NCBI GenBank assembly: GCA_973895155.1
Contig: OZ316892.1
Span: 3,785,223-3,849,222 of the forward strand
Direction of reading: 5' to 3'
Source: Marsupella aquatica
Taxonomy: Eukaryota > Plantae > Marchantiophyta
DNA: 64,000 bases
Shown here: one piece after another, positions 10,280 to 49,889 of the stretch
How positions within the stretch are numbered: the stretch's first letter is position 1
Layout: every line of letters starts with the position of its first letter
Program-made: the position numbers and the translations under genes
The notes under the pieces: model-generated
What the model saw: only the letters and a program-made list of their open reading frames with translations
Databases searched by the model: none
Told to the model about the DNA's origin: nothing

Positions 10280-10390
10280 TGCATGCTGTTGACAATTCCA
10301 GCAGAGCTATCTCACGAACAAGTAGCTGGAAGGGAAGCTTGCGAATGAGAAGATCGGTACCCTTCTGGTATTTACGGATCTCGCGGAGTG

Positions 10391-21981: not shown

Positions 21982-22121
21982 GGAGTAGGAGTCCCTCATA
22001 TTTTTGTATAAATCACAATTTTGTAATAAATGTGATCCTTGAACTAACTCATCTTGTCATGGTTGGTCGCAGTTGAAGTGATTGTTGTTTCCTGCTGCAT
22101 GGGGTGTGACTGTGAATCTAC

Positions 22122-22691: not shown

Positions 22692-23016
22692 TAAGATGAG
22701 GACATCTCACACCGGTCTCGCACCTGGCACCTGTGTCTATGACTATACATGATTGGACTCTGATATGGTCATGGATGTACGTGCAGAGGCAGTACATGTG
22801 AGGACAGTGGAGGAGTTGACACCCTCAAACATTTAGGAATTTTGTCTCATTCACTTGAGAATAGGTACATGACTCAGGCACCTATATTTTTTGTTTTTTT
22901 GTTTTTTTGGAACGTTACGTATTTTGGCAAGTACAGTCGGGGTGAAATCCTTAACAGGAAGTGTATTTTTCACTTGCATAATAAACTGACAGGGTGCTGA
23001 GTGCGTGTGTATAGTG

Positions 23017-26000
23017 ATGGCTCCAAGGTTGCCTCTTCACAACCCATTTAGGATTAGGCATCATGATTCTAAATTGTGGATGCGTGAACAAGCCCGGGCC
23101 GCCCAAGGTAGGAGTAGGAGGATGAGATGCCCATGCACACAGTGCCAAGGATTCAAGTCGTTGAGTTTGAACACTGTGCACCTTCACCTACTGCGGCATG
23201 AAAGGCACCCTCGGTGGAGGGTTTGGAATGTATCAGCAGAAGAAGACTCCTCTGATGAAGAGTGGAGAGCTGACTTTGTGGATTCTAATACAGCTAGGCG
23301 TAGAGACTACGTAGAGCAGGACATAGACTGTGCAGAGGATGGTCCTGGGGTCCAACATGAGAACGTGGATGACCAAGATGGAGATGCAGAGGCAGTCACT
23401 GAGGACGGTGGGATGGATGTCCCAAGAATGGTTCAAGAGATTTTTGAAGACCTTGATGCTTTTTACGACACAGTGGAATCAGAAGAGGACAATGAACCGC
23501 AGCCACACATTGGCGACGGCCAAGCTGAACCTAACTTTGACATTGGGGAAGGTGCAGCAGAGAGGGAGTGGGTGTTTGGGGGCCCAAAACACATCAAAGA
23601 AGCTTGCATTCCTATCTACGAGGGGTCGAACTGCTCCAAGCTGGGTTTTATTGTGTTGTTGTTGAACATCTGTGGCAATCACAATGTTCCCAATATATTT
23701 GTGACAGAGTTGTTGACCTTCCTGCGCCGAAATGTGTTACCAGATGGTAATTCAATTCCAAAAAATATGTACGAGGCTAGGAAATTGATGTCTAACCTTG
23801 GGCTGAACTATGTGTCTATTGACGCATGCCCTGATGGGTGTGTTCTCTTTCGCAAAGAGCATGCAGATAAATTGACATGCCCTCATTGTGGTAAGCACAG
23901 GTACAAGAATGTAGGGAAATGTACACACCCTGCCAAGGTTCTTTGTCATTTTCCTCTCATTCCTAGACTACAACGTTTGTTTAGATGCCCTGCCATTTCC
24001 AAGCTGATGACATGGACTCCTGATAACAAGAGCAGTGATGGCCTGCAGCGTCACATTGGAGATTCCAACCATTGGAAATTTGTTGATGAGAGGTGGCCAC
24101 AGTTTGCTGCAGAGAAGCGGAACTTTCGATTTGGTCTATCACTGGATGGAGTAAACCCATTTGGAGACAAAAACAACCATTATTCATGTTGGCCGGTTAC
24201 GCTGCTAAATTACAACCTTCCCCATGGATGACTACAAAGAGGTTTTTTGTCATGATGGTGCTGTTAATCCCTGGACCAGCTTCTGTGACCAAGCAATTCA
24301 TAGATATCATGTTGGCTCCAGCAGTGGAAGAGTGGAAGACTTTGTGGATAGAAGGGGTGTTAACCCATGATGTTCTGAAGGGGCTTCTTCGACCCAGCCC
24401 CTTTAGACTGCATGCAATTTGTTTGCTGGATATAGCAGATTACCCAGGCCATGGCATCATATCTGGATGAGTGACAAAGGGCTATGTGGGGTGCACACCA
24501 TGTGGGAAAAATGTGACAAGTGAGTGGTCGCATGCCCTGCACAGTATGAAATTTCAGGGGCATAGAAGGTATCTGCCTGTTGATCATCCTTACAGGCACA
24601 CACGGTCTCAAATTGCACACTTCAACAACAAAACAGAGCTTCATGGCCCACCACAGAGGGTCACCAGAGAGCAAGTCCTGAGGTGGGCAGCCAGGAAGGC
24701 TGATTGGGACAAGAGAAGTGCCACTGATCGAGAACCTGAGGATCCAGTGGTGAAACACGGTGTGAAAAGACAGACCTTGATGGACTTGGAGTTGGAGTAC
24801 TGGAGGGTAATGTACTTAGCCTCCAGCCCCTGTATGATTGCAATTTTAGATTGGAGCAATGGTGGATTGATGTTGGTTACAATCCTCCTATGTGGTTAAT
24901 TAGTGTTTCTGTTGTTGAATTCTTTGCTTTGTGGAGTGCAGGAATTCGAGCCCAGCAAACACAATGTGGACGTCATGCACATTGAGAAAAATATTTGTGA
25001 GAGCTTGCTGAAGTTCTTGTCGGGTGAGAAAGATACAGGAGCAGTTCGAGCTGATATGCAACAGAAGGGGATTCGCCCTCACCTTTGGTTGAAGCCCCAT
25101 GCAAGCAATCCCAATGTACTTCTCAAGTTCCAAGCTCCCTATGTGTGCACACAGGATGAATGGAAGACATTCTTGTATAGATTGAGCTGTCTGAAAGTGC
25201 CCTCTGGCTATGCTGGTGCCTTCAAGAAGCATATTACAAAGAATAAACTTGGCAGTATGAAAACACATGACTACCATTTGTTGATGCAGCACATTCTGCC
25301 CCTATGCCTCAGAGGTCTCATGCAGAAACCAGTCCGTAATGTCATTCTTCGACTGTGCAATGTATTTCGCCGTATATGTGTGAAAGTGTGGGATCCCCAA
25401 GGATTGGAGCAGTTGAAGCAGGATGCTGCTTATGTCCTCTGTGACTTGGAGATATACTTCCCCCCTGCTTTCTTTGATGTTATGACTCATCTCCTAATCC
25501 ATGTGGTATAAGAGCTAGGGCAGTATGGGCCAGTCAGTACCAGATGGATGTACCCTATGGAGCGATACATGAAGTTGTTGAAAGGTCATGTGAGAACATA
25601 CTACAGGCCAGAGGCTTCCATGGCATTGGGGTACATTAAGGATGAGACGTTGGGATTCCTAACAGAGTACATGGCTGGGTCTGGTGAAGCTATGACAAGA
25701 GTTTGGAAATCTGGTAAAGATGATGGAGTGAGTGGCGAGGTTGTTGAAGGTGTGGGACGTGCTATTCAGCTGCCTGTTGCGATTTGAGACAAGGCTCATT
25801 CATATGTGCTGGCAAACACAGAGCCTATGCAACCATGGTGGAGGTGAGTGATTGAATTGACTTGCCTTTGTTGTGATGCTTCTTGTCTGTTCCAAGGGTG
25901 ATCTTAGGTTGTCATGTGTTGTTTAGACCTAACTATGCCTGTACCTCATATTGCAGGGAATATGATATGCAAAAAGCTGCACACTCTGGGCAGCAGGATC

Positions 26001-26716
26001 CCTTGCCACAGTTTGAGCAGTGGATTCAGGTGACAATTCGAGAGCATAGTAGACATCACCCAGATATGGAGAAGGATTTGTATCTTCTATCTGTGCCACC
26101 ACGATTGTCTATTCTGACCTACAAACGGATGAGAGCTTATGGAAATCATTATCGAGTGAGGGATGAGCAGGGTGACCATTGTGTATCATATGATTGTGGT
26201 TTGATTTCTGTGTTTGAGCAGAGAACCTCTGAAGAACAGAGGGGGTGGATGAAGATGGGTTACGTGGGGGAGTTGACTGACATTTGGGTGTTGAATTATG
26301 GTAACACAAGTGTCCCAGTGATATTGATGAAGGGATCATGGGTGAAATCAGAGTGGCAGAGACCAAGGGCCACCATGAAGCGTGATCATGATGGGTTCTT
26401 GTTGGCCAATTTTAGGTCCAGAGTACCAGAATGGTCTGAGCCTTTTGTTTTCCCTAGCCAAGTTGAACAGGCTTTCTTTGCAGATGTGGAGGAGTCACAT
26501 GGCTGGAGGGTGGTATGCCATAGCCAAGCACGGAACAGGCGGATGGATGGAAGTAAAGTAGAGTTCAGTTTGGATGACCATGCTACATTCGAGCATCCTA
26601 GTCATGAGACTGTACTTCCAACTCGGGCAGGGACTGACTACATCCCCTTAACATTGAGAGAGACATATGATGAACCTGGGCAAATGGAATATGATGAGGT
26701 TGATGATTTGCAATAG
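23017..26716 (+). pseudogene. CACTA TnpD/TNP2-like transposase with stops and a frameshift
   Basis: CPCTQC, IDACPDGCVLF...CPHC...RY, FPLIPRLQRLF, LSLDGVNPF, SCWPV..NYNLP, DVMHIEKN, MKTHDYH, FPPAFFDVMTHL, WMYPMERYM, EPFVFPSQVEQAFF; introns about 24807-24941 and 25843-25956; lesions near 24222, 24468, 25509, 25785. Confidence 0.95.
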
Positions 26717-26893
26717 GCAACAGCTGGCGATTGGCAAGTATGAGGTTGAGGATGACTACCTGCACAGAGTCACAGAACGGGAATTGCTGCCTGGAATGAT
26801 GTTTAGGATAGTTGGATATGCATGAAATTGATTGATACTTTGAATTTAGTGTGTTGATTCTCCCTGTTTGGTTGTGGGTGCTGTGCAGAAGCT

Positions 26894-29800
26894 ATGGGGG
26901 AAGAGGGTGATGACATGGAGACAGACATGGGGCTTGGAGAGTGGGGTGAAGAGGAAAGATTGGATATGGATGGAGACCCAGATGCAGGGGGCTCACAGAA
27001 AAATGCACCTGTGCAGGATGCACAGGGCCCTCATCAAGTCCCAGGTAGGTGGGCAGCTAGAGAGAAATCACATAATCCATACCCTAGAAGGAGCCAGAGT
27101 TATTGGCAAGGGACGCCTGATAATTATGATGATGACTATGATGGAGCAGAAGATGGATGGGATGAATATGAACACCCAGAGCGTGGTAGAGACGGGTATA
27201 GAGGGCAATGGAAAGGTGAGGAGGATGATTGGACAAGTAAGTGCCTTGTGCTAGTGATTTTGTGATGGTAGTAGAGATTTAGCTCAATATATGGACTTAT
27301 CTGATGTGTAGCTAGGGCAAAGAGTTTATCTTACAGGTCCATGAGTGTGGCATGTACCTGTTGGTATGCAGACTCTGATTGGGACAATCACGAAAACAAC
27401 AAAGGCCATCCACGTTCAGATAGGAGGCAATCATTCACAGGCGGGAGAAACGGCCCTAATTCATCAAGACAAAGCAATAGGACAGGTGGTCCAGAACCAT
27501 CTATGCGCCAAGGGAGAGGTAACTTGGTCATTGCAGAATTGCTCTGAAGTCCAATGTATATTGGCAGCAGGATTTATGATTCATACTTACCTAATGTAAG
27601 TGACTGTAAATGGATCCTGTAAATGTGCAGGGACTCCAGGGAGGTTTGGACAATGCAATCCAGGCCGTGGGGGGAGATCAGGCCGTGGAGGGACCCCAGG
27701 CCGTGGGGGGACACCAGGCCGTGGAGGGACACCTAGTAGCGCTTCAGGGAGTACCAAGGCAGGAGACAGTAACAAATTTGGTAAAGTAGAAGTGAATTCC
27801 GAAGGTTGGATAACTCCCACATGTGATGGTAAGAACCGTTGGCATTCTGACCTAAGAGGAGAAGTATTGCGTTGGTTAGATTTGAGCATTACAGAGTTTA
27901 GGAGTCAGAACAAAGCTGATTGGGCTGCTATCTGCAAGGACATTCTTGAACGGTGGGACTATGTTGGTAATGATGGTAAGGGCCCAGTTGAAGATTGCAT
28001 ATCAGATTATGCAATGAGGATTTTGAAACAAGAGAGGCATAGGTTGAAAAGGATGTGGATAGACAATGGTTCTAACAGGAGAATGCCACCACCCCCATCA
28101 TTGGAACTGGATCAATGGACACAGTTAATCAAAGGGTTCATGTCGGAGGCTGGACAGAGCAAGAGTGAACTGATGTCAAATGCTCGAGGCAAAGTGAAAC
28201 ACCTTTCATAGGCTGGGAGAGGAAGTTATGCTCCAGTGAAAGAACAATTGGTAAGGCAGTGACATGCCTGATAGTAAGCCTCAAACTTATCATCTTGCTA
28301 CCATTATTACATTTTCATTGACAATCAACACTTGGTTTCATTCATATGTATGTTGATGTGGACTGCAGAAGAAATTGACAGATGAATCTGAACCATCAGC
28401 ACAAGAAGTGAGAGAGGAGTTCATGAAACAAAGGAGTGAGGTGACAAGTGTGACTTCCAAACAGGTGATTATGTTGTAATTCTGTATGTTCTGTGACTAT
28501 TTGGCCTTGAGCATCAGAAAGAAATGTAGTAGGAAGTAAGCAACCAGTTCTTGGGGACAGTTATCTGAGATATGTAAGCTGTGTTATGACAGGGAACTGT
28601 TACAACTCTCACAGAGATGTGTGAACGGTTGAAGTCATTAGAGTGTGGACTCCCTCGAGTGGAAAGTAAATTGGCTGATCGTTTGGATATTATGGAGGCA
28701 TCTGTAGCAAACCTTCTTGCATCAGTGGAATCTAATTTCAAGCTTGTGATTGAAAAATTGGGTGGTTCCCAACCAAACAATGAGGGCAACATTGTACAAA
28801 GTGTGCCCTTGTTAACAAAAAAGGGAATTGGCAAATCTGACACAGGTATGGAAATGACACCGGCCCATTGTTCATTGTGTCCTATGTTCAAATGTTAGAA
28901 GTAAGTTTTCATGAATTGAGTGAATGGTTTGAATGCAGGAAGAGTGGAGGCAGAGAAGGACCCTGTAATCAGTAAGCAGAAGGGCAAGAAGGTTGCTGAG
29001 ACAGGTAACCTGCTATGATCCAGTACATTACATTTGAAAAGTGCATGGAGTTTTGTGAAGCTTAAGCCGGTTGGAGGTAATCTTTTCTATAAGAACTGGT
29101 TGGATGAACTGGGATCTGAAGTGACATCATGATTGATGTATCAGGTGATTCAAAGAGCAATAATGAAGAAGATGTGCCCAGTGCCTCAGTGACCATAGCC
29201 AAGGAGGTATCAGGTAAGCTGATGCTTTAAATTCCTCTATATGAATGTTGAGCAACAATTCAGTGGTTAATAGATTCAACGTGAATATTGTGGTGTGTTT
29301 ATTGATCAACAGAAGCAGACATGGAGCATATGGCAATGGCAAAGAAGGGGAAGAAGGCTGTTCATAATGGTAAGGAGATAGTGACAACTTTGTGGTTGGT
29401 GACATGTACATTTAGCACATGTGATGAGTGATTGACTTATGTTGGACATGACACTGAATTGTAGTTGATGCAGAGTTGACAGACTCTCAACCAAGTGGGA
29501 GCAGGGTGAAGCGACGTCGAAACTTGGGAGCAACATTGGATGCAAGTAAGATTGTAGATGCTTCAATTGAAGCAAGTACAATGTTGGCAGATACTGAGAT
29601 GATGTCGCAGGGAAATCCTGCTACACAATCAGAAGTGTCAAATATGGATGCAGATTCTTTGAAGAAGAGTGTAGCCAATTCTCGATCACCAGCACAAAAC
29701 ACTCGTGCCAAAGTCATGACTCGCAACCAAGGTATGAATAATGTCATGTATAAGCCACCCAGGAAAGCCAAGAAAAACAGCCAGGGTAAGGTGGAGGTGA

Positions 29801-30069
29801 TAGCCACAGCAGAGCCAGTCCATAATCTTCTATCATGGGAGGATGACTCGCAGGTATGTGTGGGTACAGGCATTTTGCGACCGGATCATGCAAAATTCCA
29901 TGGCAAAGTGGTCCCGGATGACCATGTAGTAGTATTGTTGACTACAGTGATTGTATCTGATTGTAATTTGCCATTTCCGAATAGAGACGATGATCCACCT
30001 CAGGAAATAATTGCAGATGCAGTAGGATCTCTTGTGCTCTGGCCATCAGAGTGTGTTAGTCTGCAGTGA
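26894..30069 (+). pseudogene. CACTA ORF2 (TnpA-like), multi-exon, decayed
   Basis: Lies after TnpD; acidic and GRGG-rich exons, a helical region (W..I...W...RHRLK...PP...W..L), a coiled coil, and a C-terminal FHG..V...V.L..V....LPFP...DAVGSLVLWP domain; stop at about 28209. Confidence 0.75.
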
Positions 30070-33000
30070 CTGAATGCAAGTGTAGATAGAATCATGTGAA
30101 TTGTGTCACATTTTGACATTGCCTTAGAAAGATCCAAGAAATATCTGTACCAATTTTTCCATTTGGTAAAGAGGATGAAGGAGCCGTTGTGTGTGACATT
30201 GATATTTCTGAATTCTGTATATATGAAACAAGTGATTGATGTCAAACTATGGCTCTATGGTGATTGTCTATGATACTTGAATCTATTTTATCATTTCAGT
30301 ATTAGTGTGTATAGTATAGAGGAATACTTTGTGACCTTCTTTGTAGTCTATGATGTTTGAATCTGTGAATTCATATTAGTGTACATGGTATAGAAGATGG
30401 CTTTCTAAAACTATGTATTCTAATGTTAACATGATGAATGGTGAACTTATAGAGTGAGTTCATTCCAAGTACACAATAAAACATGAATGCAATATGTTAT
30501 TTGTGCACAAGAGTGGGTTCATTCCAAGTAGTATAGTGGGGTCTTCATCACTCATATCCAGTTGACATGAAAGACTTATACATACCCCACAAAGTATATT
30601 TAAAGACTACCCTCCATACCCTTTTTAGTCGTTCCCAACGACTCATCATCGCAGCCCATAAAAGACTGAAAACGACTCACCAAAGCTACCCACACAAAGA
30701 CTAAAATAGACTGAAAATCCAGTCTATTAAACGACTTATAAACCAGTTCTAAAAAGGACTCAGTTGATTATAGTAACAAAACATACGACTCGCAGTCCTA
30801 TAAAGGACTGGAGTCCTTCCCAGTCGTTTCCAAGTCCTATACGGTACTGAATAGTCGTTTAATGGGGTCTAAATACCCCCTGGTTTCTACTAGTGACCTC
30901 TTCATAACTCATTTTATCAACAGCTCCCATATTTGTGACCAAGTGCTTCTGGCCCCAACTGATCTCGTATTGAGAAATGTGCAAAACATCAGCGTATTTG
31001 ATCATCTGTGGCGGTGTAAACTTTTTCAAAAGACCTCTTCTTTAAAGCTGAAGATAGATATGAGCATTGATTATCTCATCTTGAGATGCACTCTCCATGG
31101 ACCATTTTGGCTCATTTAATTGAAGATATGCACGGATATCACAGGCCATTTCCATTTTTTCCAAACAAGGCCATAAAATTTTCAAAAGAAAATTGTCTTT
31201 TTGATTTCCATCATATGTAGGTGGAAATAACGCTGAATGAGAAGCATTTGTTGAAGTTCTATAAGGTAAGTCATCTATCAACACAGTGGTCTTGTCATCC
31301 CAATACCTATGTTCTTCCCAAATGAACTTTGATATGTTCTTCAAAAACACAGGTCCACCTTTGCTATTCTTGAGCCCAAGAATTTCTTGAACATGATGTT
31401 GATTTTTGATAAAAAGAAATTTTTTAATTTCTTCGGGTCCAAAGATAGTCTTGACTTGAATCTGGACTTCTTGATCAGTTCCACAACTCCATATTCCTAT
31501 GTCAAACTTTGAGAAACACTTTTGCAAAAATTCATGAATTTGTGGTCTTATTGTCCACATGTTACCACGCCATGTGTGCACAGTTGCCGTTGATATTGAC
31601 TTGGTGCATATTGTTTTTCCGAGATATTGCGATCGGAAAAATAAACCACTAAGATCAAAAATTAGTAATTTACGATCTCGGGCTATATTTTCTGGCAGGT
31701 AAGACCAAACGTGACATGGATCAAGATCGTGTTGACCTGTTACAAATGCAATTACAAATAAATTAGAACTTTGTAAAATAAATGTACAACAACTAATTTC
31801 AAAATTCTATATAAATATGAACACAGATAAAAGATAACAAAATCTTTACCTTTTGGTGCTAATGGAAATATTCCAGCAGGCAATCCTTCTTCAGATGATG
31901 AATCACTCCAAAGGGGTGACTCAATAGATGCAATTCCAGGTACTCTTATTTCTGAATATGAATCATTTTGTCCTACTTCTTCTTGTAAATTGTCAAGTGG
32001 TGACATTTCATTGTGAGAAATGCTTATGATAGTTGGCTGATACAATCATTCAAAGGAACAATCGTATTAGCATTTTTTAAATACAAGCTTTTTGTGTACA
32101 TATTTGGGGTACAAATATCACTCATAAACCTCACGATAATCATGAGGTTTGCATCAGTGAAAAATCTGAAGTCAATAAAAAGTACATATATATACTTGTC
32201 TTTTCAAGGAGATGAGCATGTTTCTCAAATGGCAAGCATGATCCATGCTTGAATTCAAATTATCATCTAATATAAGTTGCTACCTGGTACAGAAAGTATT
32301 TAATTTCCAGTATTCTCATTTTGAGAAGAACCTGCCTGGCCTAATTTGATATCCTCCAGCTCTATTTCGACTACCTCCATAGTCTCAGTTTCAACAATAC
32401 TTGTAATTTCTTCATTCCTGCAAGCATTGGTCTATTTTGACCCAACAATTCCAACATAAGATTATATTCACATATATATAAATACCTCATACGTAAACTA
32501 CAAATAAAATGAAGAATAGATGTTTACCTGTGAAGGACTTGCAAGGTTAATCAAATCATTTTGGCTTCTCATTGTTGATGAAGATTTGTTCAAACTTGAA
32601 GATTGTAAGATTTTTTCAATCAAAACAGAAGCTTGATGTTGATTATCCCGTGGAATACCAACAACAGGCGACCCTTCCTCAAATCTAGAAAGATCTTCAT
32701 CTTCGTCATTATCGTCAATAATTGCATACTCAACAATAACTTCTGAATCTTCAAGAGGATCACCACGATTGATCTTTCCAACCTTCTCCCAAAATTTGTT
32801 AACTCCAAGAATTGTTCTCAAAATATTTGGATATAATTTCAAGAATTCAGACTCTTTTTTTGAGTCTGAATACACAAAGCATTCTCTTCCAAGCTCGAAT
32901 GCACTTTTTAAAACTGATCCTCCAGAAAAGAAATCAAAAATTGTAGCGCCACGTGCAGAAAATTTATGAATGATGTTGTTGAGCACACGAGAGGGCTTGC

Positions 33001-34432
33001 AATCAGGATTAACTAAACCTCCAAGTTGATCCAAAAATGAATAACGAGGAGCTCTATTTTTTAGCGTCTTGAATGCTTCTTCCCTCAAGCGTTCCTCTCG
33101 ATCTTCTTTAGACTCATCCACTGGAATAGATTTTGGATTAGTCTTCCAAGTTTTGGAAAGGTAATCTCGATCATTTTCCTCATCAAATTGGTAGTTCATA
33201 TCTCCTTCAGGAAACATGTCAACCCAATCTTGTTTTGCACTGTGTGAAACGGCTGCCAAAAAACACTAAATGATCAGTAAACTTACTAAGTTCAAATAAA
33301 TTTAGATTCTACAATTAGTGATAATTCTAAACCTCACGATCATTGTGAGGTTTTCTCAATGTATCATAAACCCAAACCCAAACACAAATTTCAAATTTAC
33401 ATACCTGCAATAATTATTTGTTCCCGCTCATTTTTGAAAAACCTCCCAGGATGTATGTAGCCATCGGCTCTCTCAAATGATCCAAATTCAAAATGTAAGT
33501 GAATATCGGGCAAATTGTAAAGTGCAGTTAGCACGTTGGAGTAAAGATGACCATGGAATAAAAAAATGACAATCATTATTGCATCATTTTTTGGTGTTTC
33601 CACAATGTACTTAAAAAACACCTCCAACTGGGATACTGACCACTCTTTTTGGTTTCGTTTTCCAAAATCCACAATGGCAAGAGGAACAAAAGGAGCTGCC
33701 TCTTCTAAAGCACCAGGCTCACATGTTGTCATTAAGTTGTCAGTGAAAAAAGTTAGAAATGGCTCTAATCTCTTTCTCTGGCTTCCACCGAATGCATCAT
33801 AAAATAGTTGATTTAGTCTTGATACTAAACCATGCGGAATATTTTTCTCACGTGCAATATTCCGAGAAGTACAAGATATCAAGTACTTGGTACCAGCCAC
33901 TTCTCTGCATCTATCCAATTCCCTAGCATCAATGAGAATTTTATCATATAGTTCCTTCCAAGTACATTTATCAGGAAAATGGTCTGAAAAAGTGATTTGA
34001 TAATATCCAATAATTATCTCCTTCAGTTTGGAGAGAACTTTTGTTGTTTTGGCAAGCTCTTCCATAGATTGCATGTCACCTTTGTAAGAAGCATCTTTCT
34101 TAAGGAGAACTCCACCATGTTCGACCTCTTTGAGAATGGCTATGATATCATCATCTTGCAAGCCTCCCTCCAAACTCCGGAAATTTGAAACTGTTAGAAG
34201 CTTAGACTCTTTTTTATTTTCAGTGATGATACCTTGTCCATCTGGAAGCTCTCCCTCAAGCCACTTGTTACACACTTCCTTCCACAAACAATACAACTTC
34301 TCAGATGCAAAAAGTATCCAATGTACTTCAGTAAGATGTTTCTTCTCCATGGTCAGTTTTGCTGTATGCTCAAATTCCTGCACATGTCAAAAGAAACTAT
34401 ATCTTTTCAATATGAGTAGTTGACCTCACGAT

Positions 34433-36329
34433 TGTAAGTAGTGGGTAATTCCAAAAGCATGAAGAAACTGATTTTTTTTTTAATTTTTTACGGTGTTTAG
34501 ACTGCAATTATTGCTAACTGTAACTAAAACAACATTCAAAGTTACTAAGTTCCTAAGTTACGAGTAAACTCAGTTTACGAGTTTACTAGTTCACTACTTT
34601 ACGAGTTACACCTTAAGATTTGGCGACCCTGTGATCGTGACATCTTACAACTAGTTCAACGGGACTCCACAACGGATGAAGAGCTCACCTTGAAAGGGAA
34701 GGAATGCAAGACATAGGCGCTCATTACTGACTTCTCTTCCACCTTACCTCTCAAACTCTGCCCAGCTTCAACCGGTATTTCAGAGATGTCAAATGGAGAC
34801 TTCGACCCTTCTATTCCAGGATGATGAGTAGTGATGAGTTCCTGTTTCATTATCCTCAAGTGTATGCTGCTACCTGCAACAACTATGATGTGATCGGGAT
34901 GTACAGAGAAGCCCTTCGTATTGATTCATGTTATTTGATGAAGATAATGCCTTTGATGTACCCTGAGAGACAACTGAGGTGCCTACCATACTCCAGAGGA
35001 TCCCCACGCCAAGCTGAGCTGATAGAGGTTACTCAGAACCGAATTGTTACCCTTGTGGAGTTGCTGGAACCAGACGACATCCGACAGCAAGCTTGAAGAA
35101 GTCTTTAAGTGTTTTTAGTTAGTTTTTAGAGTAGTGCATCTTATCTGATTTTTAGAAATGTGTTCTAGAGCTTTAAAAGCTGTCATACTTATTTAGCATG
35201 TAGTCTGTACCTAGGAAAACCTCCTGGAAAAATCTCAGAGTTTTCTGACTTATAGTTAGGAAGTTAAAAATAGTTGAAATTTCCAAGTCATTACTTCTGT
35301 CGCAATTACGAGTTACGACTTAGCTTTTACTAGTTTAAGAGTTACTAGTTTCCGATTACGAGTTCCGATAGACAGCCGATTACGAGTTAATAGTTACTAG
35401 TTACGAGTTCATACTTAGCCATTTTTCCGGCTTTTCACTTACTGAATCGCCATTTTAAAATTTTGAGGGGTATGAAGAGGCATGTCTCTTCGACCCTGTG
35501 ACCTCTCACTCAGTAGATTTTTACTATAAGACCCCTCTACCACTAGTGTAGATGATGGTAAAGTTTAGTAATTTCTGCCTTTCCTTGGTGTTCTGCCAGT
35601 TGATCATGAATGTTAAGAGTTCGAGATCAAGCTTGACACCAGGAGAAGACTTTCCTCCTTCTTGTGATTTAATCCTTTGAATAAATCATGGGAAGTAAAA
35701 TTCCAGTTGTGTAAATCTTTTGAGTTGTGATGACAGATTCCTCTTTGGGTGACTCATTATAATCTCCTGAGTTCTTAGAGTTAACTCACTGAGTTTAAGT
35801 CTTATTTGAAAGTGATGGATTTTCTTTCATGTTGCTTAGTACCATCTAAATGTTGAAGTAGTCACTCTTTTAGATTTTATCTGAGTACCACTTAGAAAGA
35901 AAGGATAAGACATGTTGACGGCATTTTAAAAGAGTACTCTAGTAAGCAATTTAGATCTGAAAAGCAATATGGATTTGAATCCTTAAGTCTTTTCATTTTG
36001 ACTTATGTCTAAGGAGTAACCTTGGTCTATTCCAGACTCCCTTAGCATACTTTGAGATATTTTTCCTTGTGTTTTGTTAATCATTCTTCTTTTCATTAAT
36101 TTATGGTTACATGATGCTGAGTTGTCATTAAAAACCACTCACCGCTGTGGAGCGATCTTCAAAATACCTTAGTAAAGTAATCAATCCTGATTACTATGTG
36201 TTAAAGAGAGTCTTTAAATTCTCATTTGTGTTTTTATGTATCAAATCAACCCCATCTTGTTCTTTACGGGAACGAATACCGAGTTTGAAGACCTTTAAGT
36301 GTGTTTCTGGTTCTTCATAGCAAACTACA
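34433..36329. mobile_element. Solo LTR (about 1.9 kb) in an intron of the ParB-MTase gene
   Basis: TGTA...TACA ends; 5-bp TSD ACGAT at 34428-34432 and 36330-36334; removal restores the palindrome gacctcacgatcattgtgaggtt. Confidence 0.85.
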
Positions 36330-38259
36330 ACGATCATTGTGAGGTTGTTACTTAGGCATGGCATTCATGATTCAGAAAAATAACACAGTACAACAAACTT
36401 AAACCTTTTATGCAAGGCAAACTTACCTTGTAAATTGGACTTGCTATTTGTCCCGCCTCAGGCCGTTTTGGAAAACCAAAATCAGCGTACTGATTTCTTG
36501 CATGCTCCACAGTATCAATGAATGGAGATTTATAATCAGAAATCTTGTTCATCTCATTTGAGCTACTAGAGAACTCCAGCAAGATCTTTTTTGGTGTAGC
36601 TCCACTAAAAATGCGAGATGAACGTACTTGCAATTTATTTGCAAGCTCTCGAAGATCAGGTTGTTTTTTGGCATGCTCACAGATTCTTTGAGCGGCAAGT
36701 GCAGAGTGTTGTCCACTTATAGCAAAGAACTTTAACCTTGGCATCAATTTCTGAAATTGAGTCATGTCATCTTTTGCAAAACTCATTGGTTTCAAGGTCT
36801 GAGGGTTGTAGGGAACTAAATCAGCAGGATGAGGTTGCTGCTCGGGATGCAAGATCATCCCAGTCATTATCTCATCAACATGAGAAAGTTTAATTTTCCT
36901 ATAACACATGGTAGCAGGAGGTTGCGTGATATTCTTCACCGGAATCCCAAAATGTGTTCTAATTCCAAAAGGATAGTAATCTTTCACCTCTTGCAAAATC
37001 TTGTTAGATTTTTCAATCTCTTTGGCTCCAGGTAACTCACTCTCTTCATTGTCACCCACTTCTCGTAAGATTAGTGCTCCTTGTTGCACAAGATCAACAA
37101 CTGTATCCCTATTGCTATCTGGTTGCTTCCCCCAATGACTTCTTTCTTGTTGATGGCTTTCTCTTTGGTTGCACAATTGTTGGCTTGCTCTGTACATTGC
37201 CTCCTATTTGAAGTACAATGGGCTCAATCCTTTCACTTTGTTGTGCAAAAATCTCTTCCACGTTGTCCTCTTCTTGTGGCTGTTTTCTCTTCCTCTGCAC
37301 ATTTTGTGCCTTGGTGGTTGGCGGTCGTCTCTTTGGCTGAGAAACTACAAGCTTGGTAGCTTGTTTCTTCTTTTGTTGGACAATTCCAGGAATGCTTTGA
37401 ATTTGAGGCTCTACACTATCAAGCTTCTCACTTTGTTGTGGAGATGCTTCTCTACTGGGATCAATGATTGGTACCGCTTCTTCGTCAGCCTTGGCCCCTT
37501 CATATTCTGACATATCTACTCCCAAGTCATCTTCTAAAGACTTTGGCACTTCCTTCACCTTGTTTGCAACCAAAGTTTGCAAGTCAATCCAGTTGGAGAG
37601 TGTTTCTTTTCCAAATTTCTTATGGAAAAGAACAGCTGGATCAATATCAATGTTGGTTAGTCCACTTGTCTCAATGCACTGCTCCATCTGCAATGTCCTA
37701 CACAAGAAATGCTTCTTTCTTTTCAGCAAATGTAAGACTCGAGCATAACCAGATGCAATCTCCTGGTGTGAAAGTTGTCCTTGATCTGAACTACCTTTGA
37801 AACTAAAGTCCAAAGGAAAGAATGCCAAAGAAATAACATTGGCTGGCATATCATCAATCCAAGTTGTATTCAACCGCACTCCATATGTATTTGCATCAAG
37901 CAAGTATTGATACCATTTTTTTTCCGTGTAATTCTCTACAAGAACAGTTACTTGATCCTCAGAATGCATTTGCAAGTATGCAATTGGACCAACAATGTGC
38001 TGTCGCAATCGGTGTGGATCTTTTTTTATGTCAATCAAACACAACTGAACTTCTCCATCGTAAGGGTACATATCAATTGCCCACTCTTCTCCAATGTCAT
38101 AGCTGTATGTTAAACATACATCATTATCACAAATTTTTGGTGCAGATACTGGGTCCAAATCATGGTAATCATCTGCACAATAAACAAGTGAAGTCCATTA
38201 ATTAAATGAACAGATCCAATTCTTGAGAATAAACTAGGTGGAATGATGCAGAAATGAGC

Positions 38260-38872
38260 AAACCTCACGATAATCGTGAGGTTTTGACAAGCAAAATAGA
38301 ACTTGACAATTTCTATGGAAGCATAAAAATGATAAAATATGAGCTCAACCCTTGAACAAAACCATGCAAATAAATATGAAATGAAACAACAATTGTGAGG
38401 TTTGCTGCCAACAAAAATATTCTTGACACTCTCCCTGACCTCTCACCAAACCATGAAAATATGGCTAAACTTCACAATGATAGTGAGCTTTTCCAAGCAA
38501 AAATATCCTTGAACCTATTGCCAAACCATTAAAAAAGACCCTAATCCTCACAAATATCTGAAGGTGATCCACAGAAAAAAGATGTTACTATTCTCTATCC
38601 ATGCATGAAAATTTGAAACCTTGATCATCACCATTGTGAGGTTGAAAAGAAAAAATGTCCTTCACCCTCTCATGAAGCCATGAAATGATGACCCTTCACC
38701 TCACGATGATCATGAGGTTAGGCAAGTAGAAATGACTTTCCTCATCTTAGTTAGTCAAGCAAGAAAATGTAGAAACCTCACGATGATCATGAGGTTAACA
38801 AGTAAAAAAAATTGAAATTCTAACTTTAATCAAGCATTAGAATAGTCAAACCTCACGACAATCGTGAGGTTA
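38260..38872. repeat. Array of about 8 copies of palindrome AAACCTCACGATNATCGTGAGGTTT, mostly about 75 bp apart
   Basis: Copies at about 38260, 38384, 38467, 38543, 38616, 38696, 38773, 38848. Confidence 0.85.
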
Positions 38873-39111
38873 ACAAGCAAAAAACATGAGAATGTCAAAG
38901 AATACATGCCAAAATAACAGAAGTAGCAAGGTTGGAAAATGAAAAGTACCTGGAAGCCCAACATGTGCTTGCTTTGTCATCATTACCAGATCCTTCTTGG
39001 GCTTAGCCATGCCAAAGCCGTGCGCCTATCAAAGAATCTTAAAAGATTCTTTGCAGATACTCTAAACTTGCTTGTTCTGGTACACCAAAACTCAATCAAA
39101 GTTTATAATTT

Positions 39112-39312
39112 AGCAACTCAAACCCTAAACAATACAATGCAACTCAATCTCCTCAGAGCATACTCTGATAATAAGCGCACATGCCTATTGAACCAGTCAC
39201 AAAACTCATCATTTCTAATGTAGCAGCTCAAACCCTAAACAATACAATGCAACTCAATCTCCTCAGAGCATACTCTGATAATAAGCGCGCATGCGTATTG
39301 AACCGGTCATGA
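39112..39312. repeat. 110-bp-period tandem duplication upstream of the cargo gene start
   Basis: ctcaaaccctaaacaatacaatgcaactcaatctcctcagagcatactctgataataagcgc occurs twice. Confidence 0.85.
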
Positions 39313-39806
39313 AACTTATCAAATACAAATGAGAAAGCGCATTGAGCCGGTAAGGAGACTCATGACACCCATTAGTTCACGTTCAATTGAGAAAGAAGAT
39401 AATAAGATAACAACCCAAGATAAGATAAGGACAATGAGATACGCACCTCCTTCACCAGTCATACGTACAGTAGAGGGATTGTCTGGCCTGAGCAAGGCAC
39501 ATGTAGCTACCAACAATACAGAAAACACTAATGAATAGGCACCTCTAGTACAACAGAAATCTACTCCACTATTCCACATAAACATTGACTGTCGGTACCT
39601 TGGTGATTGTGCAGACAGTTATGACAGAGGTACTGTAGCTAACTTGAATAGTCCTCCCTCACATACTATGTACACAATTCTGAGGAATGAGTGCAGAGAA
39701 TTTTGAGTTTAAATAGATATGTGAGCATGAACAAGGAGAAGTCTTGCGGCTGATCCCTCACAAGGGCCTGCCAACAGTACTAGGGCGTGCCAGCAGTAGC
39801 GCCTGC

Positions 39807-40015
39807 CAGCCTTTCACCTTCCACTAAAAATACCCTGCATGCGCTCTTGCTACGGCTGTCCTCACAGCCTTTCACCTTCCACTAAAAACGCCCTGCATGC
39901 GCTCTTGCTACGGATGTCCTCACACTACGAATCATCCTCTTCTTGGCAGCTAGGGCCTCAACAAACGAGTTTTCAGGGCCTCAACAAACGAGTTTTCAGG
40001 GCCTCAACAAACGAC
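39807..40015. repeat. Short tandem repeats (58-bp x2; 22-bp x3) in the divergent intergenic region
   Basis: cagcctttcaccttccactaaaaa x2; agggcctcaacaaacgagttttc x3. Confidence 0.8.
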
Positions 40016-40200
40016 AGAGTTTTCTTTGGTGAAGTACCCCCGATAACTTCCCAATCGAGCTTCCGCCAACTCTAGCCGCCTTCTCCTCTTCACACGGAGC
40101 TGACACTTAGTAAGTCACATGACACCTTATACGGCATGCATCTATATATGGCTAATTATTTGGTACCAATTATATATTTGGTACCAAATCCTAACAACTC

Positions 40201-40497
40201 CTCGGGGGTCTCACTACATGGGGACCTCCCCATCACCTGCGACGTTTTTAGGCCTTGAACCCCCTAAAATGTAAGAAAAAAATATTATTTTTTAACCCCT
40301 AGAAAGTTGGAATATTCTTGGAATATTCCAAAAATTGGATTAAAAAGGCCCTAATATTCTTATAAGTCTCAAAATTGAATTTAAAAGACCCTATTGTTCT
40401 TCTACAAAAATTCTTAAGTCTTCCCTTACAACCAATAAAATGACCCTATCCTTCGTCGCACGTGATATGCCATTTTTGTGGAAGTGAAACCCCCGAG
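40201..40497. mobile_element. MITE (CTCGGGGG-ended family), copy 2
   Basis: TIR ctcgggggtctcact / agtgaaacccccgag; perfect 8-bp TSD AACAACTC at 40193-40200 and 40498-40505. Confidence 0.88.
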
Positions 40498-42493
40498 AAC
40501 AACTCTAATGTAACTGTGTCAAATTTACATTCGTCTTTGGCCAAAAATTTTAATCCATATTTTGGGGCCTCTAAAAAAATATTGAGAGATTTACACTTGA
40601 CCATGGCAAAAAAAGGCCAACTCCAACTACTCCACTAAAATCAAGTAATGTCCAAGAAGTTGGTGAAATTGGTGAGGTCAATGGGCCAACAAGCGTTGCT
40701 AAAAGGAGAAAAAGTACTAAGAAACGGATGACGGCTTGTTATTGCAAGAGAACAAGCCAAAATACTTAGCCACAAGGAAAACCTGAAAATTTTCAAATTT
40801 CAACAACACAAAAAAATTCTGACTACAAGGTTCCTCATCGTGCAAATACACTAGGCTGTACAATAATGGAGGAAAAATCGCAAAATGTCCCTCAGTCATC
40901 ATATTTTAAAAAATTAATGTGTTGAGCAAATGTCGTTTACTTGGAGTCTATTAATGCGAGCTAGTTGGCGAATCCCTCCAAAACTGGGCCAATGAGTGGA
41001 AAATTAAAAAAACAGAATGAATAGTAAGGATTTTTGAAACTCCCGTTTGATTCCATGTAAATACAGAGCTCTACAGTATACAGGAGGACAAATCCAGTAT
41101 GCAAAAGCAAAAGGTCTGTCGTCATTCTTTAAATATTAAAAATGTGCTAAGCAACTTTGTTTTTTCTTCATTCTTATTGATGAAAGCTGACAATTCCCTC
41201 CAAACCTGGGGCCAATGAGTCTTCGCCAATAAACTCAAACTCAGCAACATTAGTCAATCCATCTCACGCTGATCCATTGCTCTCAAAGATATATTTGCAA
41301 ACCCTGCCCAACACTTCCACATGTTCATTTTACTTCAGTTTCAGAGTTGTTTATTTTTCTTTTCTGCTACTCACACTTTTGCATTCTCTGTTTGTGCCCA
41401 CTCTTCTACAACTATTTTCTGAGGGAAGTCTAAGCATTTTCCTTCATTTAACCAATGAAAAGACCCTCCTCCTACTCCAACTCTCTTAGATCATGGTGGA
41501 CAATGCTGACTCTGCAGTTGAGTTTGAACTGACGTTTGATGAACATTTGGGCGTCTTCTAATTGATGAGGACGCATGGTGGCACTCTTATACTCTATCTT
41601 CACCACATGCGGCAAAGACATTTATGATTCTGAATTTTGGGTATGTTTCTTTTACTTTGTTTAAGTCGTTTGTGAGTCTTTAGCTTTATTTTTGTCTTGT
41701 GCACTAAAAGTAACTAATTATGACCATCAATTTGCATACTTGGCCAAGCTCAATATGACATAGGTCTACATATGTTTTGTTTTGTTCATTGAGATATAGA
41801 GGCATAAATTGTCATCCTCAAGATCATCTTGAGGTTGTAAGTTTTCCTGTGTGTGTCCATCATTCATATGGAAGTTACATGGACTAAACTATTAATATCA
41901 ACATTAAGAGAAAATAGTGAATGGATCATTTTTTAATGGGTTGTAAGAGTTGATTTCTCTCAACCTCATGAGATTTTTCCCAATACAAGCCTTTAAGTCC
42001 ATAGGTACTTCATTTTTATTCTCATTCATTTATTCATACTTCAGTCTTCTTGAAGCAAGAAATGAAACCTCACGACAATCGTGAAGTTCTACTGTACTTT
42101 ATTTTATGACCAATAATTCTCATTCTTTTGGGTTAAATTGAATCTCTTAGTAGGTCTTGTGAATGTATTCCGGCAAACATATTGTAGTCTAACATTCTGT
42201 CAGTCCACATCCGTGTAATTACTTGCGGACCTTCTAGACCACTATTATTTCTAACATTATTGCCTTATACCTACATAATGGACTTTTTAATGCAAAGTTG
42301 ACCCAACTATGCATGTTAAGCACTTGCATGGGACCATATTAAGTTTAACCACAAAAACTAGGTTTAGTGCCTGGATGAATTTCACTTTAGTATCCAAGTA
42401 GCCTGAAACCTCACGATGATATTGAGGTTTCTTCTGGACCCTGACAACCTGTCATCTTCAACTGATCTTGAGTAATTTTCTTAACAATTTTTT

Positions 42494-45400
42494 ATGCAGA
42501 TCATGACTACAACTCGGAGTGCCAATTTTTTGTTCTCCCAAGGGTCTGAAGTACTTCTTCATCTTGAGAATATATTGGTTGCAAGGGGGGTTGTGTTCAA
42601 GACCAATCCAGAAGACACTTGTCATTCTGAGGCATTGGGTAACAACCGCATGAGTGTTCTGGTGGTTGAAATCTTTGAGCCAACAAAACCTCTTCCTTAC
42701 CCAAATCCAGGAGCTGACACCACTGGGGAGGCTTTGCGTTCATATGTTATATGGGACTGTGCTAGTGCCATTTTGGCAAATGAGAACATCCCATTGCAGG
42801 TCCAAAAAGCATCCAATGATACTCCCAACCTTGTGAGACTTGAAGGAACTGATGATTCAAGAATTGTTGGAAACCAAGTCCCCAATTCCAACAATGAACC
42901 GGTTGCACCATTTTGTTCAGGAGATGATGTGCTATTGCAACTTACAAGCATTGTTGTTGCACGGGGAGAAGTTTCTAATACTCAACCAGAGGATACTTGT
43001 GGTGACATATTATTGGGACCAGGGCGTATTAGTGTCCATGTGGTTGAAGCACTTCATGGGGTGACTCAATTGCCATACCCCAACACTAACATAAAGACAA
43101 TTGAGCAGTCTGTAGGTAGTGTTGTTCTTTGGGATATAGTCAATGTATATCATGTTGGTGAGCAATTCAGTGGGTGTGAATCGATTGAGATTCAAAATGG
43201 CGGACTCAGTCAAGGACCACATGACAACTACAATTTGAATGATCGTTCCAAGTGGTACTTAAAAGATGTGGAGATTTATGCTGTTGATCAGGTGACATTG
43301 CTTGCAAGAGGATCAATCACAGCATGGCAACCCACAGCAGCAATAAACAATGAAGTGCTTGGTGATGGTCATGTTGGGGTGCTAGTTGAACGTGTGATTT
43401 GCAATATCCACATGCAACAGAAGGAATTTCCCACATTTTTAGTGGGAACCCCGTGCTTGGTAAAATGGCCGATTGCAACTTTGAAATTCTATCCTTCTGA
43501 CAAGTTTCTTGGAGATCTTCTGTCAGAACTTGAGGATGAACAGACTGTACATAAAGAGGGGGATAATGATGAGGATGATTTGTTCTCTTCTATGGAGTAC
43601 CAGCAAAAGAAAAGGCATTATTCCATGGGCGGGTTGAGAAAACCAGCCAACCCAAATGCACGCCAAGAAAAAAGAGTGGAGCAGAGAAGAAGTGTGAAGG
43701 TGGATGAGAACAAAATAGCTCAAGTGGGCATGAAGAAGTGCAAGTGTGGAATGGAATGTTGTCGGAACTTCCCCCGCACAGACATTGAAGAGGTCAAAAC
43801 TGAGTTCTATGGTTTGGACAGTGATAACAAAATCAGTCATATGATGAATGTTTTTGAAATGAGGGAGAGATCTATGGTTGAGCAAGGACAAATGGTTGTC
43901 AAAGGTCGCATTATTTGCAAAATGGCATTTGCAATTATATTTGGAATTTCTACAAGCACCTTCTACAACTATGAGAATCTATACAAGGGTGGTTGTAAAG
44001 TGGGGTTTCATGGCAATAAGGGCACCAAAAAACCAAGGATGACAACACAAGAGTTTCGTGCTCATCTTGACCGTGTAGTGAATACCCTTGGCGAGCCTAT
44101 GCCACATCTCAGATACACAGGGAAGAAGGGAACATCAAACATCATCTACAGATTACCATCTTGCTATAACAAAGATGCTATCTATGATGAGGTAGTTGAG
44201 AGCATGAAGGTGGAAGGGAGTTAGGGAATTACCATTGGGTCTTTCTATAAGATGTGGAGGGAGAACTATGCAAATTTTTCATTCCATGTGAAGAGTGCTT
44301 TTGCAAAGTGCACTCAATGCACCACTTTGAAGGAGTTGTTGATGAAGGAGAGAAGAACTGAAGTTCGCAAGCGGTACGAAGCAGCAAGGGAAAAACACAT
44401 GCAAGAACAAATGTCTCGTCGAAACCTTTACTATGCAGCTCGGGTGATGGCAAGAAGAAATCCAGAAGATCTTCTTTGCATTATTCATGATAAGATGGAT
44501 CAAAACAAGACCCAAATTCCTAAAATGGTTGATACACTAAAAAGCATGGCTAGTGGATGTCAACCACTACCAATGGCTTTGACTGGGATGTTGACACATG
44601 GTCGGGAACCTGGAGTCTTTGCCCACTTTAGTTTGACAGGGATGTGGCCATCTGATCCGGATTTTACTATTACCTCCGTTGCAAAGTGCCTGCATGATTT
44701 GGAAGCATATTCGGGGGATAAAAGTGGAGATCTTGGAGTTCATTCCCATCAGGCAACAAACCCCTTATTCAAGGCATTATTGGAAAAGCAAGCTTTTCAA
44801 ATTGGATATCTAGATGCCAACAATGTCACAACTGATCGATATCGTGGGGAACTTGTGGACAAGGATTGTGTCTCACCAATTGTGGCAAGCGGATTGGCAG
44901 AATGTCAGAGTAGTAGCACTACACTGTTCAAGAAATTGCCAAGACATCTACACTTACAAATGGACAACTCTGCAAAGGACAACAAGAATTGGGCCATGAT
45001 GGCATTCTGTAGTGAGTTGGTTCTGAGGGGACACTTTGAGAGTATTGTCATGTCTTTCCTTATGGTTGGGCATACACATGAGGATGTTGATGCAGTATTC
45101 TCTAGGGTAAGCACTCGACTTAAGCATCGTGAGGTCACAACCCTACTTTCACTTATGGCAGAGGTATGGGAAAGCGAAGCAATTCACCCAGTGCCCACAT
45201 TGATCCAAGAAGTGGCTAGCTACAAGTCTTATGTTAGTGCTTTTGTGAAGACTATTGCAGGGCACTCTGCACCAATGGCATTCCTATTTACAATGAAAAA
45301 TAATGTCCCTGTGTACCAAGTCAAGGAGAATATCAATGACTCATGGTCACCACCCCAAGGACGATGCATATGGGTTGAAGATGGAAGTAAAACACTTGTC

Positions 45401-46216
45401 CTTCCAATTGGAGAACCACTTGCCAAAACCCCAACTACACTTGTTCAGAAAGCCAAAGATGTTTCAGCCTACATCAAAAACTATATAGAGTGGATAGAGA
45501 AAACATGGAAGGATAAGACCTCACAGGGATATAAGGAAAGGTTTCCTTTAGTGCAATATTGGAAGACAGTTACTGAGCTTTTGCAAAAGCCCCTTTTGGA
45601 GATAGTGGATATTGAAGAGCAGCCGCTGGTGGATGGGTTTTGGCCTCGAACGAAACATGGTACAGGCTATAAAAGTGATCTTGGATCATTTGATGTGACG
45701 GGTTGGGAGAATCCTCCAGATATTGTTATCCTTCAACGTGAGGCTGATGAGGAAATTCTTGAAGGTCAAACAATATTTGTGGGTCCTCTTTCTGAAAGGG
45801 AAAGCAATCGGTTTGTTCCTCTCGAAGATATTGAAGCAGGCATTTTCATCATTATTCGTCCAACACAAGAATTTGAGGATAACAAGCCAGGATGCTTCTG
45901 GATGGGAAGAGCATTGAGCAAAGTTCAAATGGACCCTGAACTACCAAATTGTGGAGATTTTCTGTTGCAATGGTGGAGACCCAAAAGCACCAAAAAGGAT
46001 AGATCATTGTATGATCGATATGAAGGATGTTTGAAGAAGCAAAAACTTTGGGAATGTGATATTTTGCAGAAAGAAGAATGGTGTAACGCAACAGCAGCCA
46101 TGCACTTTTGGACATATCAAGGGAATAAAGCTGAACAAGGCATTCGAATCCCCAAAAAGAAACTGGAGGAAATCAAAGTTTATTTAGCAAGGATAGATAT
46201 AGAAGAGCAAAGGTAG
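42494..46216 (+). pseudogene. Sola-like DDD transposase (about 1240 codons) with one in-frame TAG at 44222-44224; probable upstream exon near 41493-41640
   Basis: ORFs 42494 and 44252 share a frame; CKC..CC, ICKMAF..IFGIS, HGNKG, KCTQC...H, IIHDKMDQ, LHLQMDNSAKDNKN, FLMVGHTHEDVDAVFS; splice acceptor at 42499. Confidence 0.75.
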
Positions 46217-46826
46217 ATATTGAGAGTGATATCATTTGTTTAGTAGGATTATATAGATTCAGTTAGTTGTTAAGTCTATACTATCAAAAGTATAAGGATG
46301 ACTTATTTTTTAGGTTGGTAATCTACTCTTATGTTTTGCCTGCTTGGCACTGAGTCTAAAATTGATTAGGCAAGGTAATTAGGGTACTTATGTCATTTCA
46401 ATTTTGGATTTTATTTATTTAAAATAATATGAAATATATATTACGTTTGTTAATGACTTCTCTTTGTGTGGTATTGAGGCTTTGTGCCCCCCCCCCCCCT
46501 TTCCCCCAAAAAAATTGACTTCACTTTAGAATGTCTTGGATGATACAAGGTTCATGGATTGTAAATACTTCTAGGTATTTTGACTTTGATATATTCATAA
46601 ACAAATATTACAAATCATGAAAAAAATTCAAAAATGTGTGTCAAGAAATTCCAAAAATTGGGTATTTAAATTCCAATTTTGGTTTTATAATATTCTAAAT
46701 AGAGATAAGCAATATTCCAAAGCATTGATAATTTTCCACTTTTAATGAATTGGTTGATTAAGTAACATGTACCCCCAAAATTATCTATATTTTTTACTAG
46801 GTTTCCCCCACACCTGCCCCCTTAAA

Positions 46827-49800: not shown

Positions 49801-49889
49801 TAATTTTAGTGATTTTTTGCCGTTTTTTGCGAAATCAAAAACACACTTCGCGTTTGGTGGTCACACTTCTCGTTTGGTCCGTCATTGTG
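46827..49889. mobile_element. Non-autonomous TIR element (about 3.06 kb) with CACAGTG/CACAATG termini
   Basis: 33-bp TIR cacagtgacggaccaaacgagaagtgtgaccac (32/33 match); many internal palindromes tgggatacggNgtatcccat and ggatccatggatcc; no TSD seen. Confidence 0.8.

Follow-up and report, generated by a model that had tools for sequence, protein, structure and literature searches.

In a 64,000-nucleotide stretch of the liverwort Marsupella aquatica (contig OZ316892.1, positions 3,785,223 to 3,849,222, here called the window), 14 copies of a 25-base-pair (bp) palindrome were found, all of them non-coding and all inside a single DNA transposon with a DUF7869 transposase. Divergent from the transposase gene, and back to back with it, lies a spliced second gene on the minus strand (from ~39010 to 32500 or beyond), which we call the cargo gene. 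From the pattern of conservation of the palindromes and the predicted fold of the cargo protein, we consider it fairly probable that the palindromes are operator sites bound by the transposon's own cargo protein as a dimer, and they likely act as self-recognition sites. Two narrower readings, a parS-like clamp gated by cytidine triphosphate (CTP) and an active methylase, are not supported by the sequences.

Palindromic sites and their conservation

The palindrome consensus matched 7 places with at most 3 mismatches, against 0 in 100 dinucleotide shuffles, and a looser scan combined with a half-site matrix yielded 14 sites within 32126-42430, 13 whole and one split. This bears out the count of about 14 given in a first-pass annotation of the window, including the copy split by a long terminal repeat (LTR) and the eight clustered copies. 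The whole sites score 12-40 bits and the top score outside that interval is 8.3 bits, a separation that is partly circular because the matrix was derived from the 14 sites themselves; read in that way, the palindrome is confined to this element within the window, as had been proposed. The accompanying claim that it is missing from the nested CACTA transposon and the flanks stands for whole palindromes, none of which occurs there or anywhere in the ~50 kilobases (kb) of window outside the interval, but not for half-sites, 11 of which, lone and scoring at least 11 bits, fall outside the 14-site set (one within the transposase frame, at 45126). The exact matches found elsewhere are unrelated: one lies in a phage coding frame, and each of the other two is a lone, terminator-like copy, accompanied by A/T runs, at a place where bacterial genes converge.

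The sites form seven independent loci, and all seven are non-coding (p ~0.001, given the gene model used), in agreement with the earlier statement on this point. They flank the divergent promoter region and also occur along the cargo gene, which holds 11 of the 14. The annotation had assigned them to four cargo introns and the first transposase intron. For introns 2 and 3 this is backed by homologous proteins that cross them in one frame (4/76 and 11/76, respectively), while introns 1 and 5 and the transposase 5' intron (41641-42499) are marked by GT/AG signals only. In intron 2 the 5-bp duplication of the solo LTR, ACGAT, is itself part of the palindrome, the LTR having inserted into the site.

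The eight clustered copies, as the annotation had not stated, form a tandem array with a period of ~76 bp (spacings 119, 88, 76, 77, 76, 77 and 75), which was missed in a Tandem Repeats Finder run. The array spacers are related, with a flank z above 2.5 in 16 of 28 unit pairs and one orientation throughout. Mean identity is 69% for the palindromes and 60% for the spacers (shuffled 52%), the palindromes being more alike in 20 of the 28 pairs, although this conservation relative to the flanks is inflated because the sites were chosen by their match to the consensus. The best array units have 20-22 of 24 palindrome letters in common but only 60-68% of spacer letters (shuffled 52%). In the six single sites, the flanks show homology in 0/63 pairs (identity 0.53, and 0.53 when shuffled), the mean palindrome identity to other sites is 77%, and the match to the consensus is closer than the array average. 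The symmetry is 12-1-12 with a free centre base (A5 C4 G4 T1); 8 of the 12 half-site positions are kept in at least 24 of 28 half-sites, and the A beside the centre is kept in 28/28. The kept letters, the unrelated flanks of the single sites and the free centre uphold the earlier suggestion of a sequence-specific cis site.

An RNA hairpin, which might tune splicing or feed small RNAs, had been offered as the alternative. Every site does lie in a predicted intron, intron 1 folds more stably than its shuffles (z -4.5), and two neighbouring sites gave a weak match to MIR774 (30.7 bits against a cut-off of 80). The folding score, however, follows from the palindromes themselves, the distance to splice sites is variable, and the innermost bases, the would-be loop, are the best kept. 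Among 154 palindrome pairs, the mismatches on the transcribed strand comprise 5 G·U and 9 C·A, which gives no sign of selection for RNA pairing. We therefore regard the hairpin as very unlikely; the kept letters, the free centre and the lack of G·U bias together fit an operator read as double-stranded DNA by a dimer better.

Another possibility is that the palindromes are a neutral by-product, i.e., an old minisatellite whose palindrome was corrected or copied by template switching and binds nothing. The array is a real tandem duplication in which several sites have decayed, and site 41813 has changed symmetrically in both arms. In addition, the left arm has an intact CG dinucleotide in 9 cases and the right arm in 3 (p 0.054), the favoured side does not differ between the two oppositely oriented genes, and every site with an asymmetric CG has kept it on one and the same side; such a side bias is expected from copying in one orientation. 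Arm-to-arm correction, however, preserves symmetry while letting the letters drift, whereas here the letters are kept; all seven loci are non-coding and belong to one element, and the single sites lie closer to the consensus than the average array site. This explanation appears unlikely to us.

The palindromes might also be a very small mobile element of independent origin, or a site for a host transcription factor, concentrated here by chance. The lack of flank homology among the six single sites would suit it. Against it, the 14 sites have no consistent target duplication, which speaks against the independent miniature inverted-repeat transposable element (MITE) with its own duplications that the annotation had named as an example of a refuting case; the rest of the window holds no whole site; and the only contigs found on the array, 3 in run X1 and 2 in run X2, are all of this transposon family. 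So few contigs argue against a high-copy 76-bp unit, although contig mapping did not recover the element's own single sites and is blind to scattered 25-bp copies. We rate this origin as distinctly improbable.

Other copies of the transposon have kept the palindromes as well. Four public runs from two studies, of which one may be the source of the window, contain 68-74% of the sampled words of 36400-42600. Contig depth was 56-70 against 10.7 in X1 and 97-130 against 20 in X2, the reference being one diverged copy; assuming that this copy is single, these ratios indicate ~5-6 near-identical sister copies. The sister copies differ from the window at 4 positions across the array, only one of which is inside a site, at a centre base (38860), which agrees with the expectation that sister copies keep the palindrome. 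The diverged copy is ~80% alike where aligned, with an array of equal length, a decayed first site and mostly C>T or G>A changes; the presence of the array in this old copy means that the array predates the young family.

The cargo protein as the proposed reader of the sites

Exon 3 of the cargo gene has 70 homologues, and the names looked up (3 of 10 clusters) belong to Riccia and Calypogeia. A homologue of 1009 amino acids (P0163), 36-43% identical to the window exons, was modelled from a 53-row alignment, with confidence over approximately residues 260-750. The model aligns with CcrM (Z 17.8, root-mean-square deviation 3.6, 223 aligned), in agreement with Foldseek (E 1e-6), and by this model P0163 is a beta-class amino-methyltransferase permuted Rossmann fold with motif IV ahead of motif I. 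In the window itself, exon 4 matched PF01555 with E 8e-5, below the cut-off, and M.RsrI with E 0.019. Motif I, for S-adenosylmethionine, reads DFFSGG in 7/7 covering alignment rows and DFFSSG in one more homologue. The catalytic motif IV, (D/N/S)PP(Y/F/W), is present in 0/32 family rows, which have DFxR/K instead, and no DPPY-type motif occurs anywhere in proteins P0090-P0167. Its absence from all 32 rows suggests that the chemistry was lost or altered throughout the family, and the methylase fold of the cargo is likely a pseudo-enzyme; the earlier idea that the palindrome is a methylase target thus finds no support. Fold and motif order are those of CcrM (6PBD), M.RsrI, M.PvuII and the eukaryotic N4CMT (8S9N) and MpDN4MT1, whereas DFxR/K in place of the catalytic motif, the long N-terminal fusion and the carriage by a transposon set the cargo apart from these beta-class enzymes. 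MpDN4MT1, as described in the accessible text of its report, has TSPPY (10.1101/2021.02.12.428880).

The region ahead of the methylase fold is less clear. It contains SGQHS or SGAHS in 5/5 covering sequences, aligning with DGQHR of DndB. The arginine motif GxxRxxA, or GERR, is the CTP motif of ParB clamps, and it is absent from the ParB-like region in all five covering sequences. Searches of Pfam, PHROG, PADLOC and PDB gave no match to this region; hhalign gave 0.7% to 28 ParB (below the best shuffle) and 3.5% to 10 DndB (above 30/30 shuffles), and the ParB-DndB control also failed. The proposal of a parS/ParB system in the strict sense is therefore not supported. The ParB-like region is poorly modelled, with a single-sequence fold of pLDDT 34. 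Between it and the methylase fold lies a helical domain (~257-456 of P0163), which is confidently modelled and is a candidate for the DNA-binding part; its fold matches are weak (Z <=5), the search having been filled by the methylase domain.

At the 3' end of the cargo gene, the NIF/HAD phosphatase-like frame has DLSG at the DxD position and is unmatched by the cargo homologues, whose ends have another motif; this frame could represent a domain that was captured and is inactive, or else a gene of its own. Word-index searches for longer proteins returned 0/3768 candidates with exon 3 and 1/342 with exon 2b. Prokaryote genomes gave 0/15 for the methylase part and 0/401 for the ParB-like alignment, and phages gave no match.

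On these grounds the following scheme can be drawn. The letters of the palindrome would be read on double-stranded DNA by a protein, and that protein would be the cargo rather than the transposase or a host factor, binding the operator as a dimer. Without its catalytic motif, the cargo would occupy the sites instead of writing a methyl mark, and dimers would sit at the eight sites near the 5' end of the cargo gene, at three near the 5' end of the transposase gene and at three along the cargo gene. Occupancy would keep the CG of the sites free of methylation or recruit activating factors, as VANC does, marking the element as 'self' and keeping both divergent genes unsilenced. The array would have spread by tandem duplication and the single sites by short-patch copying, and selection on active copies would have kept them. 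Granted that the cargo does bind, anti-silencing is the role we would expect; self-repression is rather less to be expected, and an unusual active methylase would be a surprise. A more elaborate form, which is doubtful, would make the cargo a nucleotide-gated ParB/Srx-type clamp joined to a methylase-fold reader or shield; it would load as a dimer on the private palindromes, spread along the entire element and prevent its silencing. This would be self-recognition by loading and spreading, in bacterial style, within a land-plant nucleus, and every family would evolve a protein-palindrome pair of its own.

The transposase might bind the palindromes instead, using them as internal enhancers for end pairing or for activation of its own genes. 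For transposases and TnpA proteins, binding to clustered motifs and activation of cognate copies are described in the part of the report available (10.64898/2026.08.24.746577), three palindromes lie just upstream of the transposase frame, and a neighbouring non-coding element, described below, has similar palindromes. The sites, however, are 4-19 kb from the candidate right end of the transposon, with none near either candidate end; the repeat at those ends is a motif different from the palindrome, and 11 of the 14 sites are in the cargo gene. Binding by the transposase accordingly seems rather unlikely.

Several observations weigh against binding by the cargo protein, beginning with the inflated conservation noted above. 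In 8 of 28 array unit pairs the spacers are at least as alike as the palindromes, and sites 38379, 38543 and 38620 are badly decayed (7-10 mismatches). In the five introns, 12 of 17 CG lie within palindromes (350 of 2094 bases), with CG in the surrounding DNA at ~0.3 of expectation, which speaks for the scheme, but this count is partly circular. CG is lost in 16 of 28 half-sites, and 11 of the 18 changes there are C>T or G>A; the palindromes are thus not protected at all times. Profile and fold searches recognized no DNA-binding domain in the cargo, and the ParB-like region falls into the ParB/Srx register only weakly. Transposases themselves can be sequence-specific activators, as far as the available portion of that same report goes (10.64898/2026.08.24.746577). 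The sole related genomic locus found (L001; 43% identity, 1802 bp; from a metagenome scan with 19 pattern matches) has intron 2 at the same position, but this intron, of 111 bp, holds no such palindrome, and intron 3 is missing; a different sequence or different introns could serve in this relative, and we take it as a small result against. The neighbouring element at 46825-49891 is non-coding with no long reading frame; its ends read AACACAGTG...CATTGTGTT, with CTTA as the 4-bp duplication. It contains its own 12-1-12 palindrome in 7 copies with at most 4 mismatches, and the sequence of this palindrome is not related to that of the DUF7869 transposon. Dispersed palindromes, therefore, need not accompany a cargo gene; those of the neighbour might represent another private site, acted on in trans, or repeats that arise without a cargo. 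Finally, the preferred explanation is drawn from sequence and the model of a homologue.

The carrier transposon and neighbouring features

Table 1. Coordinates of the transposon, its genes, its palindromic sites and adjoining elements in the window
Feature	Coordinates	Strand	Remarks
DUF7869 transposase	42500..46216	+	PF25273 E 9e-44; 88 homologues; in-frame stop 44222-44224
Predicted cargo exon 1	38950..39010	-	ATG and donor in right phase; no homology support
Cargo exon 2	36427..38172	-	N-terminal part, then ParB/Srx-like 'ISGQHS' region; frameshifted
Cargo exon 3	33405..34377	-	Helical domain and first half of methyltransferase fold; DFGK at DPPY position
Cargo exon 4	32528..33252	-	Second half of methyltransferase fold, DFFSGG
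NIF/HAD phosphatase-like frame	31045..31736	-	PF03031 E 2e-13; last cargo exon or separate gene
Single palindrome	32126..32150		Predicted cargo intron 5 or 3' non-coding DNA; 1 mismatch; intron by splice signals only
Single palindrome	33329..33353		Cargo intron 3 (33253-33404); 1 mismatch; intron crossed by 11/76 homologues
Split palindrome	34421..36347		Cargo intron 2; half-sites 34421 (left) and 36336 (right), solo LTR between
Solo LTR	34433..36329		1897 bp; TG...CA ends; 5-bp duplication ACGAT
Array of eight palindromes	38260..38872		Predicted cargo intron 1 (38173-38949); period ~76 bp
Array site starts	38260, 38379, 38467, 38543, 38620, 38696, 38773, 38848
Single palindrome	41813..41837		Predicted transposase 5' intron; symmetric change in both arms (CAAGAT/ATCTTG)
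Single palindrome	42065..42089		Predicted transposase 5' intron; 3 mismatches
Single palindrome	42406..42430		Predicted transposase 5' intron; 2 mismatches
MITE between the divergent genes	40193..40497		8-bp duplication; depth >1000-fold above element
Nested CACTA	13897..30895	+	CACTA...TAGTG ends; 3-bp duplication; Transposase_21; no whole palindrome
Candidate left terminal repeat	13191..13223		29/33 bases inverted to 46734-46765
Candidate right terminal repeat	46734..46765		33-bp imperfect inverted pair with 13191 repeat
Palindrome sites of element 46825-49891	46985, 47335, 47423, 47516, 47604, 48243, 49522

The named transposase homologues among the 88 matches are mostly from Riccia, with Physcomitrium, Ceratodon and two animals in addition; together with the cargo homologues they make a seed-free land plant the likely host. 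The conserved motifs of the protein are HDKMDQ, QMDNSAKDNKN and GHTHEDVD; a scan of viral contigs for the transposase found it in 0/59. The copy in the window is broken by the frameshift in exon 2, by the stop at 44222 and by three insertions, i.e., the solo LTR, the MITE and the 17-kb CACTA. Runs X1 and X3 show a one-base difference in exon 2, at 37129, and the sister copies are without the MITE, joining 40192 to 40498. Upstream of the cargo gene, at 39102-39321, there is a 110-bp tandem duplication that the sister contigs skip.

No target duplication was found at the candidate ends, 13191 and 46734. The layout of the regions 13160-13225 and 46734-46800 is unusual for termini, with a C-rich segment in direct repeat immediately beyond the inverted 33-bp pair. 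Sola elements, in the accessible part of one description, have terminal inverted repeats with a 4-bp duplication (PMC10741241); the candidate ends of the carrier form a 33-bp imperfect inverted pair, at which no duplication was found.

A short domain of TNP1/Transposase_23 type was seen in the last frame of the CACTA (29458-30069, by eye) and in the N-terminus of the transposase (42500-43150), where it is repeated twice. The nested CACTA also contains, at 19976-22691, NSD-type PHD fingers, a BRCT domain and a weak F-box, a possible chromatin-reading cargo. At 9780-10580, minus-strand fragments resemble, by eye, a histone H3 gene and are broken by a short repeated tRNA-like element.

Relation to known systems

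The experimentally tested analogue is found in VANDAL elements of Arabidopsis, in which binding and demethylation by VANC have been shown (PMC5735166, PMC10398659; both cited from the portions available). The short motifs to which VANC proteins bind lie in introns and tandem repeats of the elements that encode them (PMC5735166), and the likeness extends to a second, element-encoded protein and to non-coding motifs, introns included, that accumulate as tandem repeats; the comparison with VANC motifs that the annotation had drawn fits to that extent. The VANC motifs, on the other hand, are 8-9 bp long and are not described as palindromes in those portions, the carrier is MuDR, and no common domain was seen; the element studied here has a DUF7869 transposase and a cargo with a methylase fold, and is known from sequence alone.

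Closer in design are two algal elements. In Bostrychia moritziana, the Plavaka accessory gene PAG3 is ParB-like, and tandem inverted-repeat arrays are proposed as its targets (10.1101/2025.02.11.637652, in the text accessible to us). Both are DNA transposons with a ParB-like cargo and inverted repeats, and the ParB assignment there is also a weak profile match. PAG3, however, has a 2-oxoglutarate oxygenase as its second domain, with the methylase encoded separately; its carrier belongs to Plavaka/EnSpm, and the repeats are found beside the gene. In the element studied here the sites are intronic, some of them scattered singly, and a methylase fold lacking DPPY stands in the place of the oxygenase. 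In Ectocarpus, Sola1-1_Ec32 has a ParB-methylase fusion opposite its transposase (PMC12477816, as far as the available text describes it). This brown algal methylase is, in contrast, predicted to write a mark, and its likeness to the cargo is one of description; in the main text of that paper 'palindrom' does not occur.

The bacterial ParB/parS system offers a further comparison. In both systems, a palindromic site is repeated close to a gene that includes a ParB/Srx-like region. Bacterial parS is 16 bp long with even symmetry, and ParB systems have a ParA partner; the element has a 25-bp site with a free centre, no GERR motif and no ParA partner. Overall, the interpretation in the annotation is partly supported: the element would work like VANC-type self-recognition and resembles the algal ParB-cargo design, but its sequences do not make it a ParB/parS system, and its cargo lacks the catalytic motif of an amino-methylase. 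The literature searched gave no account of this system from land plants, although subscription journals, Repbase reports and supplements may hold one. What is new here is the land-plant version, with a defined operator and a likely pseudo-enzyme, while the ParB-cargo design has already been proposed in algae.

So far, only VANC-type and TnpA-type proteins have been shown to let plant transposons recognize and reactivate themselves, and for the ParB-like cargo proteins of red and brown algae such a role has only been proposed. The element of M. aquatica offers an operator profiled at each position, near-identical copies within a young family and the sharp prediction that a methylase fold binds without methylating. 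If the proposed role is true, the system would reach land plants and would represent a second, unrelated route to sequence-specific anti-silencing, and it would also provide orthogonal protein-operator pairs with a long and rare site.

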